From assembly GCA_016788295.1 (NCBI GenBank), contig JAEUSY010000025.1, positions 7,832-71,831 of the forward strand: a stretch of DNA of 64,000 nt, given 5' to 3'. Position numbers and translations under genes: made by a program. The stretch is from Flavobacteriales bacterium. Its GTDB lineage: Bacteria > Bacteroidota > Bacteroidia > Flavobacteriales_F > PHOS-HE28. Positions 13,346 to 20,954 of this stretch are shown piece by piece (position 1 is the stretch's first letter; the number at the start of each line of letters is the position of its first letter). The notes below the pieces were generated by a model that did not search any database, was not told where the DNA came from, and was given only the letters and a program-made list of their open reading frames with translations.

Positions 13346-14176
13346 ATGACCGTGGCGCACGACGACCGGCCCATCGGCATCTTCGACTCAGGTATCGGAG
13401 GGCTCACAGTAGCCTCCGTCATTCGGCAGGCGCTCCCCTCGGAGCGCCTGCTCTATTTCGGCGATACGGCGCACATGCCCTACGGCCAGCGCCATCTGGA
13501 CGAGGTCCGAAAGTTCAGCTTCGGTATTGTGGATGCTTTGCGCCGGAAGCACTGCAAGATGGTGGTCATTGCTTGCAACACCGCCTCGGCAGCGGCGCTC
13601 TCCGCGTTGCGCGAAGCCCATCCCGGCTATCTGTTCGTTGGCATGGAACCGGCCGTGAAACCCGCTGTGGAACACACGCGCACGGGTACGGTGGGCGTTA
13701 TCGCCACCACGGCAACGTTCCAAAGCGAGCTTTACGCCAGTGTCGTGGAACGCTTCGCACAGGACGTGCAGGTGCTGCATCAACCCTGCCCCGGCCTTGT
13801 AAAGCAGATCGAAGCGGGCGAACTGGACACCCCGCTAACAGAGGAAATGCTACGTGGCTGGCTGCAACCCATGCTTGACAAGCACATTGATGCCCTTGTA
13901 TTGGGCTGCACCCACTACCCCATCGTACGCCCGCTGATCGAGCGGATCGTTGGGCCGGGTGTCCGGATCGTGGACCCAGCTCCTGCCATTGCAAGACAAG
14001 TGCAACGGCTGTTGGAAAGCTATGCGCTTACCTCCATGCCCACTGCGAAGGGCTCATTGACCTGCTGGACCAGCGGCGAGCCGAGCACCTTCCATGTGCT
14101 GCTGGAGCGACTTGGCCTGGGCAGCACCGAGGTGCGCGCTGCACAATGGTCCGGCGATGTGCTCAATCTTCCTTGA
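13346..14176 (+). CDS. murI: Glutamate racemase
   Basis: IGIFDSGIGG, VIACNTAS, LGCTHYP. Confidence 0.96.
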   Translation: MTVAHDDRPIGIFDSGIGGLTVASVIRQALPSERLLYFGDTAHMPYGQRHLDEVRKFSFGIVDALRRKHCKMVVIACNTASAAALSALREAHPGYLFVGMEPAVKPAVEHTRTGTVGVIATTATFQSELYASVVERFAQDVQVLHQPCPGLVKQIEAGELDTPLTEEMLRGWLQPMLDKHIDALVLGCTHYPIVRPLIERIVGPGVRIVDPAPAIARQVQRLLESYALTSMPTAKGSLTCWTSGEPSTFHVLLERLGLGSTEVRAAQWSGDVLNLP

Positions 14177-14681
14177 ACCAGGAAGCATAGAGCCGGTAAT
14201 TCGCTGCGATCCGTTCGATCTCGTTCCTCGAAAGATCCTCGCCGACATCGCGAATACGTTTGGCAGGCACACCGGCCATGAGACTGCCCGGTGGCACCAC
14301 CGTGTTTTGCAACACCACGGCGCCCGCGGCGATCACGCTTCCTTCACCGATCGTTGCATTGTCCATCACGATGGCACCCATGCCCACCAGCACCTTGTCG
14401 TGGATGGTACAACCGTGCACAATGGCGTTGTGGCCGATGCTCACGTCGTTGCCGATGGTGAGGGGCGCGCGTTGATAGGTACAATGCAGTACGGCCCCGT
14501 CCTGGATATTGACACGGTCGCCAATGCGGATGCTGTGTACATCACCACGCACCACGGCGTTGTACCAAACGCTACAGCCCACACCCATGCGCACGTCGCC
14601 GATCACAACGGCGGTCTCGGCGAGAAAAGGCTCATCTGCGAACTCGGGCGTGAACCCACGAACAGTGCGAACGAGCGCCAT
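14163..14681 (-). CDS. Gamma carbonic anhydrase family (hexapeptide repeat) protein
   Basis: VRGDVHSIRIG, NIQDGAVLH, IGHNAIVHGC. Confidence 0.93.
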   Translation of the reverse strand: MALVRTVRGFTPEFADEPFLAETAVVIGDVRMGVGCSVWYNAVVRGDVHSIRIGDRVNIQDGAVLHCTYQRAPLTIGNDVSIGHNAIVHGCTIHDKVLVGMGAIVMDNATIGEGSVIAAGAVVLQNTVVPPGSLMAGVPAKRIRDVGEDLSRNEIERIAANYRLYASWFKED

Positions 14682-14683
14682 GA

Positions 14684-15043
14684 TCAGTGTTTTTCAACGG
14701 GTTTGCCGCATCCTTCCTTCTGGCAACAGGCAGGCAATTTCGCAAAAGCCCTGGGATCGCCGGGCAGTTCATCGGCATAATATCCCAGCTTGGTCACGGC
14801 CAGGCGAATGGCTTCCGGCGAGGTCTTCCTTTCATCATACTCCACATGAATGGTGTTCGTGGGCAGGTCCACATCCACCTTTTTCACTCCCTTCTCGTAG
14901 ATGAGCTCGGTCTCGATGGTCGTTTCGCACATATCACAAACCGTGCTGGTGCGTATGTCGAGCTGAGCGTTCTTTTTGTCCTGGGCCTTTGCGGGCACCA
15001 TGACCGCCACCGCAAAAAGCAGCAAGATTATCCTGGTCATCAT
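14684..15043 (-). CDS. Exported heavy-metal-associated (HMA) domain protein
   Basis: Signal peptide, CDMC motif, C-terminal LPACC..GC. Confidence 0.88.
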   Translation of the reverse strand: MMTRIILLLFAVAVMVPAKAQDKKNAQLDIRTSTVCDMCETTIETELIYEKGVKKVDVDLPTNTIHVEYDERKTSPEAIRLAVTKLGYYADELPGDPRAFAKLPACCQKEGCGKPVEKH

Positions 15044-17307
15044 TTGTCCTTTTCAGTTTTCGATCGTTCCAACGTGTAGCGGAGGCCACCGTAGATCATG
15101 GCCTTGTTCGTGGGTCCCCAGATCAACGAGGCATCAAAGTACGGGCCGAAGGGGTCAGTTGCCGCAATGATCTGTTGCTGCTGCAATGTGCTTGTGAGGT
15201 TCTCGCCCCCGAGGTAGAACTCCCATTTGCCGACTACGCGTGTTACCTGCATGTGTAGCGTAGCGTATGCGGGCGAACGATCGATCATGCGATACTCCTC
15301 CGGGTTCGACATGGTGGAGGGGATGCGCGCTTCGCCGAACAGGTTCAGACTGAGATCAATGCGCCAACGTTCCTTGTTGTCGGCATAGGCCACATCGATC
15401 AGGCCACGGTGCACGGGCGTGAACGGGCGTTCCAATAGCCGGCCGGAGTAGGTGGTACGCACATCGTAGAACCGGTGGCTTAGTTTCAGGTCGAAGCTAC
15501 GGGAGAGCTTCACCTGTACATCGGTCAGAAGGCTGTTGGCATACGAGCTGCCGTTCAGCATGTACAGGGCGAGCATGTTAGGAGCACGGTCAAGATCGGC
15601 CACCACCTGGTCCGTAAAGACACTGTGGTAGGCATCCACGCCGAACACCCACTTGCGTCCCCACCATTTGAACTTGTGCAGGAAGGAAGCACCGATGTTC
15701 CACGAGCGCTCCATACCGAGATCACTCTCCCAGACCACGCGCCGCGAACTGGCCATCACCGCAGCATTCTCCACCAACGGATTCGCGGTGCGGAACCCAT
15801 GCCCCACGGAAAGCCGCGCGTTGGTAAGCGCGCCGAGATCGAACTTGGCGTGCACTCTTGGGCTCACCACATTGCCGAAGCGATCATTGGCATCGGCCCT
15901 GAGCCCGGCTACGAGCGTGAAACCGTTGCGCATGCGGGTATACTCCGCGAACGCACCGGGCATCCGTTCCGTGCGACCATGGTCCTGTACCTTACCAATG
16001 GAGTCGCTGAAGAACTCCTCATAATCATCGTACTGATAAGCCAGGCCCGCCTTCAACTGATCGGTGCCTTTGCCCAATAACTGTTGATACACGGCGTTCG
16101 CATAGAAGCTCTGCTGAAGGCCATCATAGGTGCGGACCCCATAGGTCGAACCGACCTCGTGCCGTCGCCCCGATACAATGAAACCGATGCTCTTGGCTGG
16201 ATCATCCTTGAAAATGAAGCCATGCTTGGCGAGCGCATCGACCATGCGGTTCCGGATATCAATGTCGTACAGCATTCCAGGACGATGCCCGGCATGTTCA
16301 GGACCGGCAGGCATTGCTCCATGGGCCGCGCTCTGACCTCCTTCACGCACATCATCAACAACACGCAAGGTGACCTGACCGCTCCGGCGTTCATCGGCAT
16401 ACATCCAACGGTCCATGACGTTAATGCGCCTGGTCATCGGCATGTCCATGAAGCCGTCGTTGTTCTGATCAAGCTCGGTGCCCATGTAATTGCCATGGAG
16501 CAACAGCAGGTTGGCGCTGTGTGCACCGGTCTTCTGCGCGGTGTGCACATTGGCCTCCACACGGCCCTGCGAGTTACCATAAAGGTTCACGAACAGGGGC
16601 GGCTCCCCCAACGGGTTCAACAAGCACAGGTCTATTTGGCCGGTCATGGCATTGGGTCCGTTCACGGCCGTGCCGATTCCCTTGCTCAAGTTGATGTCCT
16701 TGATCCACGTACCGGGGATCAACGTGAGGCCCGAAGAGGTGGAAAGGCCGCGCACAAAGGGGAAGTTCTCCACGCTGATCTGCGCATACTTGCCATCCAG
16801 ACCGAGCATGCGGATGGTCTTGGTGCCTGACACCGCATCACTATAGCTGACATCCACCGTGGCATTGGTCTCGAAGCTTTCGCTGAGGTCGCAGCAAGCC
16901 GCACGCTTCAGTTCCTTTTGTCCTATGGTCTCTGTGGCGTTCACCGTGCGTGTGCTGAGCTGCGTACCGCTCACGCGTTCCACCACTTCAACCGGCCCCA
17001 TGTCCACGGCCCACTGCAGTGTGATCTTCAAAGGCCCCTTTGGTACTTCCTTCAGCAGGAGCGTGTCGGACTTATAACCCACGAAGGAAGTGACCAATAA
17101 CGCAGGCCATTTGGGCGGCTGTTGAATGGAGAACTCGCCTTCGTACCCGGCCGTAGCACCGATGGTCGTGCCGGACCAGTGCACGTTGGCCCCAAGGAGA
17201 GCCTCGTTGCTCCCCTCGGCGAGCACCAGGCCTGTAATTGCGGTCTGCCCAAAGAGCGCACTCATTGACAGACCACCAAGAAGAAGTAATGCTAAGCGGA
17301 AGTTCAT
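15040..17307 (-). CDS. TonB-dependent receptor, AACC plug motif type (probably metal-related)
   Basis: CarboxypepD_reg N-domain, ELKRAACCDLSESFETN plug, barrel ending YGGLRY; His/Met-rich loop HGAMPAGPEHAGH. Confidence 0.92.
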   Translation of the reverse strand: MNFRLALLLLGGLSMSALFGQTAITGLVLAEGSNEALLGANVHWSGTTIGATAGYEGEFSIQQPPKWPALLVTSFVGYKSDTLLLKEVPKGPLKITLQWAVDMGPVEVVERVSGTQLSTRTVNATETIGQKELKRAACCDLSESFETNATVDVSYSDAVSGTKTIRMLGLDGKYAQISVENFPFVRGLSTSSGLTLIPGTWIKDINLSKGIGTAVNGPNAMTGQIDLCLLNPLGEPPLFVNLYGNSQGRVEANVHTAQKTGAHSANLLLLHGNYMGTELDQNNDGFMDMPMTRRINVMDRWMYADERRSGQVTLRVVDDVREGGQSAAHGAMPAGPEHAGHRPGMLYDIDIRNRMVDALAKHGFIFKDDPAKSIGFIVSGRRHEVGSTYGVRTYDGLQQSFYANAVYQQLLGKGTDQLKAGLAYQYDDYEEFFSDSIGKVQDHGRTERMPGAFAEYTRMRNGFTLVAGLRADANDRFGNVVSPRVHAKFDLGALTNARLSVGHGFRTANPLVENAAVMASSRRVVWESDLGMERSWNIGASFLHKFKWWGRKWVFGVDAYHSVFTDQVVADLDRAPNMLALYMLNGSSYANSLLTDVQVKLSRSFDLKLSHRFYDVRTTYSGRLLERPFTPVHRGLIDVAYADNKERWRIDLSLNLFGEARIPSTMSNPEEYRMIDRSPAYATLHMQVTRVVGKWEFYLGGENLTSTLQQQQIIAATDPFGPYFDASLIWGPTNKAMIYGGLRYTLERSKTEKDK

Positions 17308-17384
17308 TGATCCGGTAAAGAGTACAACCGAAGTACACGGTGAGCACATTGTGCTCCTACGCGCATGGCGCCTTTAACGGAACC

Positions 17385-17786
17385 CTAAATACGGTACACC
17401 CCCATCAGCGACCGGCGTTCGGAAGATGGTATTGGGGGCGGTTGGTCGCCAACTTCATTTGGCACTCCCATCGGAAGCGCGAACAAGGGTGAACGCCCAA
17501 AAAGCTCGGCATGCTGGACCGGAACGCACAGCGCTACGATACGATCATGCTGCAGCTGCGGTTGATCCACCACCACCTGTCCAAAGGTGCAGCATTTTGC
17601 ACGCAAAGCGGGGGCCGCCGGAGCATCTTGCATTCCGCACTCAGCGTAGGATACACCCAACGTGTAAACGCTGAAGCCTCCCTTTAAACACGTCATTCGC
17701 GACAGCGACAGGCCGCTCGTCGCCAACAGCAGCAACGCTGTCGCGGCGAACACCACCCATCTGCCCGGTCGTAAGAATGCGCTCAT
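17385..17786 (-). CDS. HYC_CC_PP-like Cys/Pro-rich membrane-anchored protein
   Basis: N-terminal hydrophobic helix, RMTC, C, KCC, then DQPPPIP and ...GVYRI end; directly upstream of the TonB receptor. Confidence 0.7.
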   Translation of the reverse strand: MSAFLRPGRWVVFAATALLLLATSGLSLSRMTCLKGGFSVYTLGVSYAECGMQDAPAAPALRAKCCTFGQVVVDQPQLQHDRIVALCVPVQHAELFGRSPLFALPMGVPNEVGDQPPPIPSSERRSLMGVYRI

Positions 17787-17793
17787 AACAGAA

Positions 17794-17880
17794 CAAATGT
17801 AGCCTAAGGGCCAAGGAGACCTTCCCCATACAACAGGTGCCATCTTGGGAACCCAAGGCCTTCGTTGCGGCCTAACTTTG
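17794..17880. promoter_or_regulatory. Divergent Bacteroidota sigma-A -7 boxes
   Basis: TACATTTG on minus strand (17801-17794) and TAACTTTG on plus strand (17873-17880) match TAnnTTTG. Confidence 0.7.
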
Positions 17881-17884
17881 CACC

Positions 17885-18496
17885 ATGCAGTCCACCAAGC
17901 GCCCGCCCGTATCCGTCTATGCCGAAATGACACCGAACCCGGCCACCATGCGGTTCGTTAGCAGCCGCCTGCTCATTCAGGATGGCCGCCTGCTCGAGTT
18001 CCGGACCCCGGAAGAGACCGAGAAGGTATCCCCACTGGCCGAGAAGGTGTTCAACCTGCCCTTCGTTACGGGTGTCTTCATCAGCAGCAACTTCATTTCC
18101 GTTACACGGAACAACTCGGTGACCTGGGACCTGGTGCAATTGGAACTACGTGAGTATATCCAGGAGTTCCTGAACACTGATGGCCGCGTGGTGTACGAGG
18201 ATGCTCCGGCACAAGCGCTGGCCGATGCGAACGAACGGGCCAGCACGCACGCCGATGCGAAGAACCCCGAGGACGAGAAGATCATCCGGGTGCTGGAGGA
18301 GTACATACGGCCCGCAGTGGAAGGGGACGGCGGGCACATCGCTTTCCGATCGTTCGAGGAAGGAGTGGTGACCGTTTCGTTGCGTGGCTCTTGCAGCGGT
18401 TGTCCCAGCAGCATGGTCACCTTGAAACAAGGCATTGAGAATCTGCTGAAACACGAAGTACCGGGGGTGCGCGAAGTGGTGGCCGAGGAACTATAG
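17885..18496 (+). CDS. NifU/Nfu family Fe-S carrier
   Basis: TPNPATMRF N-domain; IRPAVEGDGG, GSCSGCPSS. Confidence 0.93.
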   Translation: MQSTKRPPVSVYAEMTPNPATMRFVSSRLLIQDGRLLEFRTPEETEKVSPLAEKVFNLPFVTGVFISSNFISVTRNNSVTWDLVQLELREYIQEFLNTDGRVVYEDAPAQALADANERASTHADAKNPEDEKIIRVLEEYIRPAVEGDGGHIAFRSFEEGVVTVSLRGSCSGCPSSMVTLKQGIENLLKHEVPGVREVVAEEL

Positions 18497-18576: not shown

Positions 18577-19305
18577 ATGCGACACGCTCGAATTACCCTG
18601 GTCACAGCGCTCCTGGCAGGAGCCCTGCACGCCAGCGCCCAGAACGTGGGCGAGATACATGGCAAGGTGCTGGATGCGAACGGAGCACCCCTCTTCATGG
18701 CGAACGTGGTGACCGAACGTGGCGATGCGTTGATCGGCACCACCACGGACGAACGGGGGCACTTCGTACTGAAGCCCCTGGTGCCCGGAACCTACACGGT
18801 ACGCATGTCCTACGTGGGCATGGCTACGGCCGAGATCACCGGTATACAAGTGAACCCGGACAAGATCACTTTCCTGAAGGATGAACGACTGAAAGCCAAC
18901 ACGACCTTGATAGAGTTCGAGGTGGTTTGCCGCAGATGGGAGCAACCGTTGATCGATCCGGAGGAGCCGAGCAAGATCACGGTATTGGCGGCGCAGTTCG
19001 AGGACAGCCCAGTGCGCAAGAACCCGGTGGCCCTGATCGCAATAAGCTCACCCGACATCTACAAGGCCCCCAACAGCGACGACCTCTATTTCCGCGGATC
19101 CCGTTCCGATGCCATGGCGTATTTCGTTGACGGCGTGAAGGTGACCGGACAGCTGAAGGGCGTGCCCCCTGCATCCATCGCAAGCTTCACGATCTATACC
19201 GGCGGTCTTCCTGCCCGTTATGGCGATGTGACCGGTGGCGCGGTGGCCATTGAGACCAAGAGCTACTTCGACCTGTACATGCAACGACAAGCCGGCGTTC
19301 GTTAG
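18577..19305 (+). CDS. Carboxypeptidase-regulatory-like plus TonB plug domain protein without beta-barrel
   Basis: GKVLD..G.PL..ANV, TTTD..G.F, FRGSRS...YFVDGVKV, TGGLPARYGDVTGG..IETK, then stop after 14 aa. Confidence 0.8.
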   Translation: MRHARITLVTALLAGALHASAQNVGEIHGKVLDANGAPLFMANVVTERGDALIGTTTDERGHFVLKPLVPGTYTVRMSYVGMATAEITGIQVNPDKITFLKDERLKANTTLIEFEVVCRRWEQPLIDPEEPSKITVLAAQFEDSPVRKNPVALIAISSPDIYKAPNSDDLYFRGSRSDAMAYFVDGVKVTGQLKGVPPASIASFTIYTGGLPARYGDVTGGAVAIETKSYFDLYMQRQAGVR

Positions 19306-19315
19306 ACCCACGACC

Positions 19316-19885
19316 ATGTTCCTGCGCCGAAAGCCCACTTCCGTGCGAACGGACGAAGAACTGGTGACCATCCTACGGGGTGGCCACCAGTCGGCGTTGG
19401 GAGAGCTTTGGGACCGTTATGCACAACTACTGTTCGGGGTGTGCATGAAGTACCTGAAGGATACCGATCGCAGCAAGGACCTGGTGACCGAGCTGTTCAC
19501 CGACCTGCCTGCGCTGCTCAGCAAACATGCGGTGGAACGCTTCAGGCCTTGGGTGCATACGGTCATGCGCAACCGTTGCCTGCTGGTGTTGCGTGGCGAG
19601 CGCCGTACGGACCATGTGGACGAGCAGGCCTTGGCGGACCAAGCACTGACCGAAGATGATGCCTTGCTCCGCGAACGCACGTTGGTGCAGCTCGAAGAGG
19701 CCATCGAAAAACTCAACCCCGATCAACGCACCTGCATCAGGTACTTCCACCTGGAACGGCACAGCTATCAGCGCACAGCGGAACTGACCGGACTTTCAAT
19801 GGATCAAGTGCGCAGCCACCTGCAGAACGGACGGCGCAACCTCCGTCTCATCCTCCTCCACCATGCCCACCAGAATGAACATTGA
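19316..19885 (+). CDS. ECF RNA polymerase sigma factor
   Basis: TDEELV, RYAQLLFGVCMKYLKD, FRPWVHTVMRNRC, VRSHLQNGRRNL. Confidence 0.93.
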   Translation: MFLRRKPTSVRTDEELVTILRGGHQSALGELWDRYAQLLFGVCMKYLKDTDRSKDLVTELFTDLPALLSKHAVERFRPWVHTVMRNRCLLVLRGERRTDHVDEQALADQALTEDDALLRERTLVQLEEAIEKLNPDQRTCIRYFHLERHSYQRTAELTGLSMDQVRSHLQNGRRNLRLILLHHAHQNEH

Positions 19886-20954
19886 CCCCTTCGCCCCGCA
19901 CGAAGCGCCAACAGCTGTACAGCTGATCGCTTATGTGGAAGGAAGGCTCACGCCCGCCGAAGAGCACCAGGTGGAACTTGCCATGGAGGCAGACCCCTTT
20001 GTCCGCGAGACTGTGGAAGGACTGCGCATGCCCGGCGCGATCGAGGCCGCTGCCCGGATGGAGCGTCCGCGACCAACCGGCGGAAGTATCGGTTGGATGC
20101 CATGGGCAGTGGGTGGAACGATCCTGGCCGGAGTGGTGGCGATCTACTTTTTCCAAGGGGATGCTGTAAAGACGAGCGACCCTGCGCAGATCGTTTCAAC
20201 TGCTACACCACAACAGGCCGAGCTCTCGGCCAACGAACTGGCCGATCTGCCGTTGGAGGAAGCCGAGATCGCCGCGGCCATTGAACTGCCATTGACCCAA
20301 CAGATCGGAAGACCGGAAGACCCGCCGCAACCCAGCGAAACGCCCGTGGTTCGCGATGCACCCGTGGACCGATTGGAGGAACGGGGCACGCGCATCATTA
20401 CACCGACACCAGCCCCTACTGTGAGCCCTGCACGTCCAGCTCGCACATCGGTGCAGCTGCTCTATCTGCACGACCTGAAGCTGGTGCACCCGAAAGAACT
20501 CTACGCACGCGACCCGGTAATGGAACTGGGCAATAGCGGCGTGGATGCCAGCTACGGCGATCGTGGTCAACAACAGACCGACCGGAACGCCATCCGGAAC
20601 ATGACCTACACCTCTTACATGGACGAGGCTCTTGGCCGTTTCGCACGAAACGACAATCGGGGTTGTCTCGAAGAGCTGCGCTTCCTCATGGACCAGTATC
20701 CCGATGATGTGAACGCGCAGTTCTATGCAGGTCTGTGCTGCTACAACCTGGGCCTGTATAAACGGGCGCGGCATTTTCTTCATCAGGCTGCGGTACACAG
20801 CGTGGATGTTTTCCACGAAGAAGCCATCTGGTATCACGCGCTCACACTGCAGCGCTTGGGCGAACTGGATGCCGCCACTGAGGCCTTCTCGCGCATTGCA
20901 GCAGGAGGAGGCTTCTATGCCGAGCGGGCCCGCGAACTGGGAGGCCTTAAATGA
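19875..20954 (+). CDS. Putative anti-sigma factor: ASD-like N-domain, TM helix, Pro-rich linker, periplasmic TPRs
   Basis: LIAYVEGRL...HQVE...DPF..EGL, one TM segment, AQFYAGLC and EAIWYHAL TPR helices; overlaps sigma stop. Confidence 0.78.
   Translation: MNIDPFAPHEAPTAVQLIAYVEGRLTPAEEHQVELAMEADPFVRETVEGLRMPGAIEAAARMERPRPTGGSIGWMPWAVGGTILAGVVAIYFFQGDAVKTSDPAQIVSTATPQQAELSANELADLPLEEAEIAAAIELPLTQQIGRPEDPPQPSETPVVRDAPVDRLEERGTRIITPTPAPTVSPARPARTSVQLLYLHDLKLVHPKELYARDPVMELGNSGVDASYGDRGQQQTDRNAIRNMTYTSYMDEALGRFARNDNRGCLEELRFLMDQYPDDVNAQFYAGLCCYNLGLYKRARHFLHQAAVHSVDVFHEEAIWYHALTLQRLGELDAATEAFSRIAAGGGFYAERARELGGLK

Follow-up and report, generated by a model that had tools for sequence, protein, structure and literature searches.

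Only for two proteobacterial proteins of the DUF2946 family, CruR and CutF, has it been shown that an exported leader peptide, while still nascent, controls metal genes (PMC9426467, PMC9973294). In Bordetella pertussis, cruR (Bp2923) heads the genes cruR-bfrG(crtA)-bp2921 and precedes a copper TonB-dependent transporter, with a PepSY_TM gene in third place (PMC9426467, PMC12914433). The published account gives 45 residues from the CXXC motif of CruR to its RAPP motif, which lies 3 residues from the C-terminus, reports that adding 5 residues breaks copper regulation, and describes an arrest that blocks Rho-dependent termination in a 162-nucleotide (nt) spacer (PMC9426467; PMC9973294 for the spacer length). 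In Rhodobacter capsulatus, CutF is the small Sec-exported product of the first gene of the copper operon cutFOG, and is described as acting only in cis, via translation, with a stem-loop before the next gene hiding the ribosome-binding region (PMC9973294; bioRxiv 10.1101/2025.02.05.636593). Here we describe a candidate system of this kind in a Flavobacteriales bacterium, within a 64,000-nt stretch (the window; contig JAEUSY010000025.1 of assembly GCA_016788295.1, positions 7,832 to 71,831; G+C = 59.7%) in which a small open reading frame (ORF), P0001, precedes the genes for a TonB-dependent transporter, P0002, and an HMA-domain protein, P0003. We give a probability of about 0.5 to the reading that P0001 is the cis-acting leader gene of this three-gene metal uptake operon, the metal most likely being copper. 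By analogy, the gene content is most like that of cruR-bfrG, a leader before a TonB-dependent copper transporter, and the mode of action would be most like that of CutF on cutO, in which a translated exported leader is combined with a start-occluding stem-loop.

The three genes are consecutive on the minus strand of the window (coordinates are window positions, on the minus strand unless marked otherwise). P0001, a putatively exported Cys-rich candidate leader and a remote HYC_CC_PP relative, occupies 17385..17786 (133 residues and a TAG stop at 17385-17387). It is separated by a 77-nt spacer (17308..17384) from P0002 (15040..17307; 755 residues, start MNFRLALLL), which is followed by P0003 (14684..15043; 119 residues, with a CDMC motif and a C-terminal ACCQKEGCG), a putatively exported protein whose ATG overlaps the P0002 TGA by 4 nt (ATGA). 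An initial annotation of the window had proposed a metal-sensing, ribosome-arresting ORF here, and the elements it named, a 133-residue ORF lying 77 nt upstream of a TonB receptor that is coupled to an HMA protein, are all present in the sequence.

P0002 comprises a CarboxypepD_reg N-domain, a plug with RAACCDLSESFETN and a barrel; in Pfam it matched CarbopepD_reg_2, Plug and TonB_dep_Rec_b-barrel, with the plug and the barrel above their cut-offs. Two features of this receptor had been singled out in the initial annotation. One, the AACC motif of the plug (residues 136-139; 16891-16902), is kept in 22 of 23 orthologous receptors. The other, a His/Met loop, exists as Met- and His-rich stretches at residues about 286-345 but shows no conservation of place or richness among the orthologs. 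A sequence search of the PDB with P0002 returned no relative at E<=0.001, and hence no link from sequence to the solved CrtA. P0003 scored 39 bits with the Pfam model HMA (PF00403; cut-off 24.8); its CDMC motif lies at residues 36-39, its best PDB relatives are the metal-binding domains of Cu-ATPases, and a CxxC motif is found in all 21 HMA orthologs. By reading, P0002 and P0003 each open with a signal-like hydrophobic segment. At one locus (L044, genome G016) the receptor ortholog is broken into two ORFs, of 236 and 596 residues, that overlap in alignment, the result of a frameshift, an assembly error or a pseudogene.

The small ORF is a real gene rather than a chance reading frame, because relatives occur in 23 of 24 further genomes in the genus (and matches in 26 of 41 related genomes overall) and 44 cluster representatives were recovered at E<=0.001 from 1.84 billion proteins. 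Eleven sequences, P0001 itself included, make up its close relatives, some genomes of the genus hold two copies, and the relatives that carry a name come from Flavobacteriales/Bacteroidota metagenome-assembled genomes. Scans of P0001 against Pfam and NCBIfam gave no match even at E<=10. The uncharacterised HYC_CC_PP model NF047658 (cut-off 28 bits), whose name we take to stand for HYC, CC and PP motifs in that order, likewise hit neither P0001 nor a longer, 182-residue reading of it at E<=10, and matched none of this genome's proteins at E<=0.001; elsewhere, 58 of the 201 Bacteroidota genomes sampled contain a match to it. Eight of the 44 relatives do match NF047658 (best E 1.4e-6), and hhalign against 14 HYC_CC_PP ORFs gave 86% probability (E 5e-6) over 126 columns and the full length, pairing hydrophobic N-terminus with N-terminus, RMTC with HYC, CC with CC, PP with PP and tail with tail. 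P0001 has a CC (residues 65-66) and a PP (within residues 116-118), with RMTC in the place of HYC. On these comparisons P0001 is best classed as a deep branch of the HYC_CC_PP superfamily that lies below the curated NF047658 cut-off, so that the HYC_CC_PP-like identity suggested in the initial annotation holds as a remote relationship and fails as membership of NF047658. The canonical proteins show a hydrophobic N-terminus, a single Cys, CC, Pro-Pro and a hydrophobic C-terminal tail in the same order; P0001 differs in having RMTC instead of HYC and a single Cys in place of the second CC, and the canonical receptor-linked flavobacterial set has a tail of 12 residues and a CC-to-PP offset of 58-61 residues. 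Within the library searched, no paper mentions HYC_CC_PP or DUF8199.

The family consensus runs from a basic N-terminus and a short hydrophobic core through SRMTCLxGGHSV, DCCP, CC and a variable stretch to RPPPLxxxxRLxxxxxxxI and the stop. In P0001, residues 1-29 (17700..17786) form a putative N-terminal export signal, read from the sequence as a basic n-region, a 13-residue hydrophobic core and SLS, a Ser-x-Ser site, ahead of R30. Five cysteines follow, C33 (in RMTC), C50, C65, C66 and C87, rather than the four counted in the initial annotation. Among the 44 relatives, C33 and C65-C66 are invariant and C50 is nearly so (the motifs span 17589..17690), although the consensus DCCP is reduced to AECG in P0001. 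The linker that comes next (residues 67-115; 17442..17588) is the least conserved region of the protein, with a commonest-residue share of 0.27 (3.16 bits) against 0.45-0.69 elsewhere, and its 49 residues have no conserved hydrophobic pattern. AlphaFold2, run with the 44-sequence alignment, returned a mean predicted local distance difference test score (pLDDT) of 62.5 for P0001, with a confident N-terminal helix that spans residues 9-23 (a block pLDDT of 93 over residues 11-20), a hairpin at residues 27-44, no secondary structure over residues 45-120, and a short helix in the tail at residues 121-128.

The spacing of these motifs is far more constant than the sequence between them. From the first Cys to the CC there are 32 residues in 49 of 68 anchored sequences, the CC-to-PP offset is 50-52 in 62 of the 68, and the distance from the CC to the proline at position -17 is 49-51 residues (50±1) in 39 of the 44 relatives. 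Because the linker is constant in length though least conserved in sequence, it may be read as a ruler. In P0001 the PPP (residues 116-118; CCG CCC CCA, 17433..17441) occupies positions -18 to -16 and is preceded by Gln where most relatives have Arg; DQPPPIP, residues 114-120, has 13 residues after it. The initial annotation had placed the PPP at the C-terminus, whereas the PPP is followed by a conserved 15-residue tail, IPSSERRSLMGVYRI (17388..17432; family pattern xxxxxRLxxxxxx[FY]x[IVL]). Exactly 15 residues follow the Pro-Pro in 68 of the 68 sequences anchored by script, so the PPP-to-stop distance that the initial annotation had suggested comparing is indeed conserved; seven of the 75 sequences were skipped in anchoring, of which five fit by eye and the exceptions read PAP and APD. 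Among 72 distinct relatives, 51 have PPP and 44 have Arg either just before the prolines or one residue earlier (the RPP or RxPP form), while the QPPP form seen in P0001 accounts for 2. The chain ends with Ile in 52 of them, with Val in 13 and with Leu in 7. Family ORFs end in TAG in 19 of 31 cases, against 578 of 2595 genes (22%) in a crude gene set of this genome, an excess that is no more than suggestive, as the loci are kin, and that could stem from stop-region pairing in a helix or from a release-factor-specific step.

What lies downstream of the small ORF was compared across 31 family loci: the one in the window, 28 in further genomes of its genus and 2 outside the genus but within the class. 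The receptor is the next gene in 25 of the 31, and of the 22 whose sequence extends far enough to tell, 21 have the HMA gene behind the receptor. In four loci (L046-L048, L052) the family ORF is instead followed by an RND pump, identified by Pfam ACR_tran in two and read from the N-termini in the other two, and in two more (L050, L060) by a multicopper oxidase, both Pfam-confirmed. In other members of the phylum, canonical HYC_CC_PP genes stand before genes for receptors that share the KELLKAACC plug motif and also for proteins with N-termini that read like CzcA/CusA-type RND pumps. The same repertoire of neighbours is described for DUF2946 proteins (PMC9973294; PMC9426467), and that analogy suggests copper as the metal and sensing or regulation as the role. 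Because one small family heads an importer, exporters and an oxidase, a sensor or regulator is indicated rather than a fixed partner.

A possible link between the small ORF and the translation of the gene behind it lies in the spacer RNA. Folding each of 23 loci separately, from the Pro-Pro codons to the receptor start, gave a recurring outer helix that encloses one to three inner hairpins and pairs the bases at or just past the small-ORF stop with bases just before or including the receptor AUG. Over the 22 loci used for statistics (L040 was dropped for an implausible start), the end segments form 12.0 expected pairs in native spacers and 2.6 in shuffled ones, and in 16 of the 22 the native pairing is reached by at most 5 of 100 shuffles. 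When arms were exchanged between loci, the native duplexes averaged -16.1 kcal/mol and the mixed ones -9.2 (0 of 10,000 permutations as good), with the native partner the best available in 11 of the 22 loci. Fourteen canonical HYC_CC_PP loci, with receptors and pumps downstream, gave the same result (native -11.9, cross -5.9; 0 of 10,000 permutations), so that the stop-to-start helix, like the KELLKAACC receptors, is common to both branches. In contrast, 365 generic same-strand spacers of 55-100 nt from this genome, taken with one ATG per gene pair, had no native excess (-11.94 against -11.76), and the mean duplex energy of the family was reached in none of 20,000 draws of 22 generic spacers. 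At the family level, the spacer ends co-vary as a helix that links the leader stop region to the receptor start region. Relaxing the criterion for a helix (to E<=-10, with the ends within 6 and 10 nt) took away its power to discriminate: 21 of the 22 family loci passed, but so did 212 of 365 controls when these were allowed any ATG, and the relaxed version was dropped.

Five distinct orthologous spacers, all of 77 nt, share a consensus four-helix junction, P1-P4. The 5' arm of P1, the outer or 'clamp' helix, lies at 17372..17383 and begins 2 nt past the P0001 stop codon, and its 3' arm (17309..17321) ends 1 nt short of the P0002 AUG; compensatory changes occur in 3 of the 26 consensus pairs and all three are in P1. 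Inside it are P2 (17368-17371 with 17359-17362), P3 (17342..17356) and P4 (17333-17336 with 17322-17325). P3, which reads GAGCAC-aat-GTGCTC on the minus strand, is the palindrome GAGCAC-att-GTGCTC that the initial annotation had pointed out and whose conservation it had suggested checking. The palindrome is present and its stem is kept in all five spacers while the loop varies; of its six pairs five are invariant and the sixth is broken in one sequence, hence it shows no covariation and argues neither way, and it proves to be an inner hairpin whereas the covariation sits in the outer helix. Taken together in MAFFT and RNAalifold, the 22 spacers yielded no consensus fold, the sequences being too diverged to align, and an Rfam search of the window spacer found no match at E<=1. 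The RNA that encodes the tail showed no native excess of pairing with the spacer middle; with the 3' arm it showed a small one (10 of 10,000), which helices running on into the final codons account for. By eye, the spacers of L012, L042, L049 and L055 have a G+C-rich inner hairpin followed by a U-rich run, in the manner of an intrinsic terminator lying within the outer helix; the window spacer has no U run.

Transcription appears to enter the operon directly ahead of the small ORF. The -7 box of Bacteroidota type that the initial annotation had located there is present as TACATTTG (17794..17801), an exact TAnnTTTG match 7 nt upstream of the P0001 ATG. Given where transcription starts relative to the Bacteroidota -7 box, the P0001 transcript would be leaderless or near-leaderless, because the box is only 7 nt from the ATG. 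An exact box lies 13-16 nt before the family-ORF ATG in 17 of 24 loci, and in 22 of the 24 when one mismatch is allowed (the other 7 of the 31 loci, with a start that could not be assigned, were left out). Across the genome, 94 of 435 TAnnTTTG boxes have the ATG of an ORF of at least 100 residues within 2-12 nt (peak 4-8), compared with 18 of 537 for the reversed motif. Judged from the sequence, leaderless or near-leaderless transcripts seem to be habitual in this high-G+C genome, and the small ORF seems to be translated first. Within the 64-kb window there are 7 exact boxes, where 10.2 are expected by chance; two of these face outward within a 98-nt divergent region, at 17794-17801(-) and at 17873-17880(+), the latter preceding an Nfu/NifU gene that starts at 17885. 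The 77-nt spacer of the window contains no exact -7 box, and a sigma-70 and terminator scan of its minus strand found no site. The RNA evidence consists of assembled contigs from one RNA-labelled public run, which give no ends, strand or level and in which DNA is possibly present. Run X1 covers all 30 bins at similar depth, and run X2 contributes only six 151-nt pieces, while X6 and X7 yielded nothing of use. A contig of 1211 nt spans 16654-17864, bridging receptor, spacer and leader, which is consistent with a single transcript without proving one.

In the model that we favour, transcription would begin at the -7 box directly before the leader ATG, and the leader would be exported during its synthesis, with the Cys motifs reaching the periplasm while the C-terminal module, made up of the Pro-Pro about 50 residues past the CC and the conserved 15-residue tail, is still in the ribosome. 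Bacteroidota initiate translation without Shine-Dalgarno pairing. Bases just past the leader stop would pair with bases just before the transporter AUG, and this helix would keep the transporter start closed until a ribosome at the end of the leader unwinds the 5' arm and opens it. The number of ribosomes that complete the leader, together with their dwell at its end, would gate transporter synthesis in cis, and metal on the nascent Cys motifs would alter this gating via pausing or release at the Pro-Pro and C-terminal module. CutF, for its part, is reported to escape detection or to be broken down quickly once exported. What the sequences show directly is that the ORF and its motifs are conserved, that the motif spacings are constant, that the genes follow in this order behind the promoter box, and that the spacer ends co-vary among relatives. 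That the leader is exported, binds metal and pauses the ribosome, which metal is concerned and in which direction the response runs are the parts of this model that we infer, and the metal sensing and ribosome arrest ascribed to the small ORF in the initial annotation are of the same kind.

Compared with the DUF2946 leaders, the P0001 family shows the same fixed Cys-to-Pro spacing and the same place as first gene of a copper-handling operon, but not their sequence. There was no DUF2946 match in Pfam for P0001 at E<=10 or among the 44 relatives at E<=1, the Cys positions of P0001 form no CxxC or CxxxC motif, and its Pro motif lies outside the end position of the DUF2946 type, which is 3 residues from the C-terminus in CruR and was set at the last 15 residues in the survey for CutF-like proteins. 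The likeness to CutF, reported as a small Sec-exported first gene product (PMC9973294), extends to a Cys metal motif that is followed by a Pro-rich motif near the C-terminus, and two paralogs in the genus precede multicopper oxidases as CutF precedes CutO. In CutF, in contrast, the cysteines form CxxxC rather than the C...C(C)...CC of the small ORF, which moreover has its Pro-Pro 15 residues from the end and a conserved tail behind it. The RNA differs as well: here no Shine-Dalgarno is involved, the helix starts at the leader stop and closes the AUG-proximal region, the promoter box abuts the ATG, and the downstream gene is for an importer. With CruR the small ORF has in common an N-terminal export signal (putative here), a long spacer, a copper TonB-dependent transporter as the likely target (PMC9426467, PMC12914433), and a fixed distance from the Cys motif to an RxPP-type motif, 45 residues in CruR and about 50 here. 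It departs from CruR, with its RAPP 3 residues from the C-terminus and its arrest acting on Rho-dependent termination over 162 nt, in having a structured spacer of 77 nt and the motif QPPP, and in having an HMA protein where the published Bordetella operon has PepSY_TM.

A further comparison is with the RAPP-type arrest peptides (ApdA, ApdP and the SecM class), which also carry Arg-x-Pro-Pro in a small exported protein upstream of a regulated gene, and in which RxPP with x = G, A, S or P is described as arrest-prone in Escherichia coli, Pro at x partly keeping activity (PMC12992588). The window copy differs from these in lacking the Arg and in having 15 conserved residues after the motif. In that survey, copper-related RAPP or RGPP upstream ORFs are reported as not found in Bacteroidota (PMC12992588). 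A bioinformatic link of CutF-like proteins to Bacteroidota is nevertheless already published: the final list of 5,334 'CutF-like' proteins is given as 19% Bacteroidota, or 40% after normalisation, and was obtained by iterated searches with a filter for PP within the last 15 residues (PMC9973294). The small-ORF subfamily would fail that filter, because its PP is at -17/-16. Our own literature search for copper leader control in Bacteroidota found proteobacterial work only. The statement in the initial annotation that no demonstration from Bacteroidota was known therefore stands as far as experiments are concerned, with the qualification that Bacteroidota proteins are in the published CutF-like list (PMC9973294).

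A number of observations weigh against the leader model, or against particular steps in it. A ribosome held at the PP sits 45 nt short of the stop and does not reach the outer helix. The 15-residue tail is conserved as protein across subfamilies of very different DNA composition, and a simple stall at PPP leaves this conservation unexplained, because a chain stalled at the PP lacks the tail residues. Pro-Pro at the conserved site (around -17) is absent in 2 of the 72 relatives, the QPPP of P0001 lacks the Arg that is essential in RAPP-type peptides, and even the Pro motif of CutF, when fused by itself in E. coli, reportedly did not stall strongly (PMC9973294). All of the experiments come from outside the Bacteroidota. 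Importers and exporters share the leader and the helix, and one fixed logic cannot serve both. The window is itself a weak example of the structure: its outer helix has 9.4 expected pairs, reached by 12 of 100 shuffles, and its duplex of -13.1 kcal/mol is matched by 138 of the 365 generic spacers, so the case rests on the family and not on the window locus alone. Nor does the RNA that encodes the tail offer the 5' arm another partner, since native pairs are no better than cross-locus ones (native -13.3, cross -14.0; 8812 of 10,000 permutations at least as good). A promoter inside the operon may exist, since the box consensus of this genome is loose. Finally, the bridging contig reaches 78 nt upstream of the P0001 ATG and, if it is RNA, would misfit a leaderless start, although a contig end cannot be taken for a 5' end and the library may contain DNA.

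This leaves two possibilities. A pause at the Pro-Pro may act negatively, starving the stop codon of ribosomes, or the whole of the C-terminal 18 residues may act in the tunnel with the ribosome at the stop. We regard as unlikely the specific proposal of a metal-dependent termination pause, in which the C-terminal 18 residues would hold the ribosome on the 5' arm and open the next start, making the family a phylum-wide leaderless exported sensor; UAG stops, in threefold excess, would be in keeping with a pause that depends on one particular release factor. For the broader idea in the initial annotation, that of a cis-acting exported Cys-motif leader like CruR and CutF, the comparative tests are consistent, whereas its simple picture of a stall at PPP fits less well.

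The main rival reading makes P0001 a functional metal-binding protein, in the periplasm or tethered to the membrane, that works in trans as a thiol-rich relay for metal or an accessory to the transporter, pumps and oxidases, with the helix merely coupling translation so that these products are made jointly. We judge this unlikely, though it deserves more weight than the other alternatives. In its favour, the motifs are under protein-level selection, and so is the tail, for which AlphaFold2 predicts the short helix at residues 121-128 and which would here serve in binding or in contact with the membrane. The Cys residues do not vary, the other products of the operon are thiol-rich and putatively exported too (the AACC plug; the CxxC and CC..C of the HMA protein), translational coupling alone would account for the helix, and a folded or partner-bound protein would also keep its lengths constant. 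It fits less well with a 49-residue linker that has neither a conserved hydrophobic pattern nor predicted structure, or with a P0001 that shows no known fold or family in the Pfam and NCBIfam scans. The small ORF is moreover always the first gene, right behind the promoter box, and a single physical partner is unlikely for a family that heads three unrelated machineries.

If the leader did act in cis, it might still control transcription rather than translation, the position of the ribosome deciding Rho-dependent or intrinsic termination in the spacer. CruR is reported to work in this way upstream of a TonB-dependent transporter (PMC9426467), and the U-rich runs after the inner hairpin in L012, L042, L049 and L055 would suit it. 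In the window, on the other hand, the minus strand of the spacer has no terminator-like site and its hairpins no U run, no anti-terminator alternative pairing was found, and 77 nt of spacer predicted to be fully structured are unlike a Rho loading site, that of CruR being given as 162 nt (PMC9973294); we therefore think control of this kind improbable here. There is, lastly, the view that nothing is regulated, the ORF encoding an adjacent conserved envelope protein and the helix being an ordinary intergenic hairpin. The window taken singly would bear this out, as 138 of 365 generic spacers match the stability of its helix, 12 of 100 shuffles reach its pairing and its palindrome stem shows no covariation. 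A gene order kept in 25 of 31 loci, constant motif spacings, and spacer ends that co-vary in two independent sets where generic spacers have no native excess make it very hard to credit. Although unproven, control by P0001 as a leader is the most likely of the explanations weighed, at roughly even odds.

The genes that flank the operon add some context. Only 2 nt downstream of P0003 and on the same strand is a gene for an LbH (hexapeptide-repeat) protein (14163-14681(-)), which may share the operon transcript with the HMA gene. On the other side, a gene for a protein with Nfu_N and NifU domains (17885-18496(+)) diverges from the small ORF, an arrangement retained in loci L002-L012 of the genus. 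Behind it lies a 242-residue ORF (18577-19305(+)) with CarboxypepD_reg and Plug domains only and no barrel, then an extracytoplasmic function (ECF)-type sigma factor gene (19235-19885(+)) and a 363-residue ORF without clear family (19863-20954(+)); together, the genes at 18577-20954(+) may encode a plug-only protein and a sigma/anti-sigma pair.

If the leader model is true, control of metal genes by a nascent leader extends to the Bacteroidota, and is achieved there by an unrelated sequence, with a different Cys pattern and C-terminal module, and without Shine-Dalgarno initiation. Should the pause prove to be one at termination, it would serve importers, exporters and oxidases alike. The helix from leader stop to transporter start offers a concrete RNA target that can be mutated, and the constant spacings of the small ORF are rulers that can be tested. 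The model would also aid annotation, giving a role to many first genes now listed as 'hypothetical' and flagging the receptor and HMA pairs behind them as candidate copper importers.

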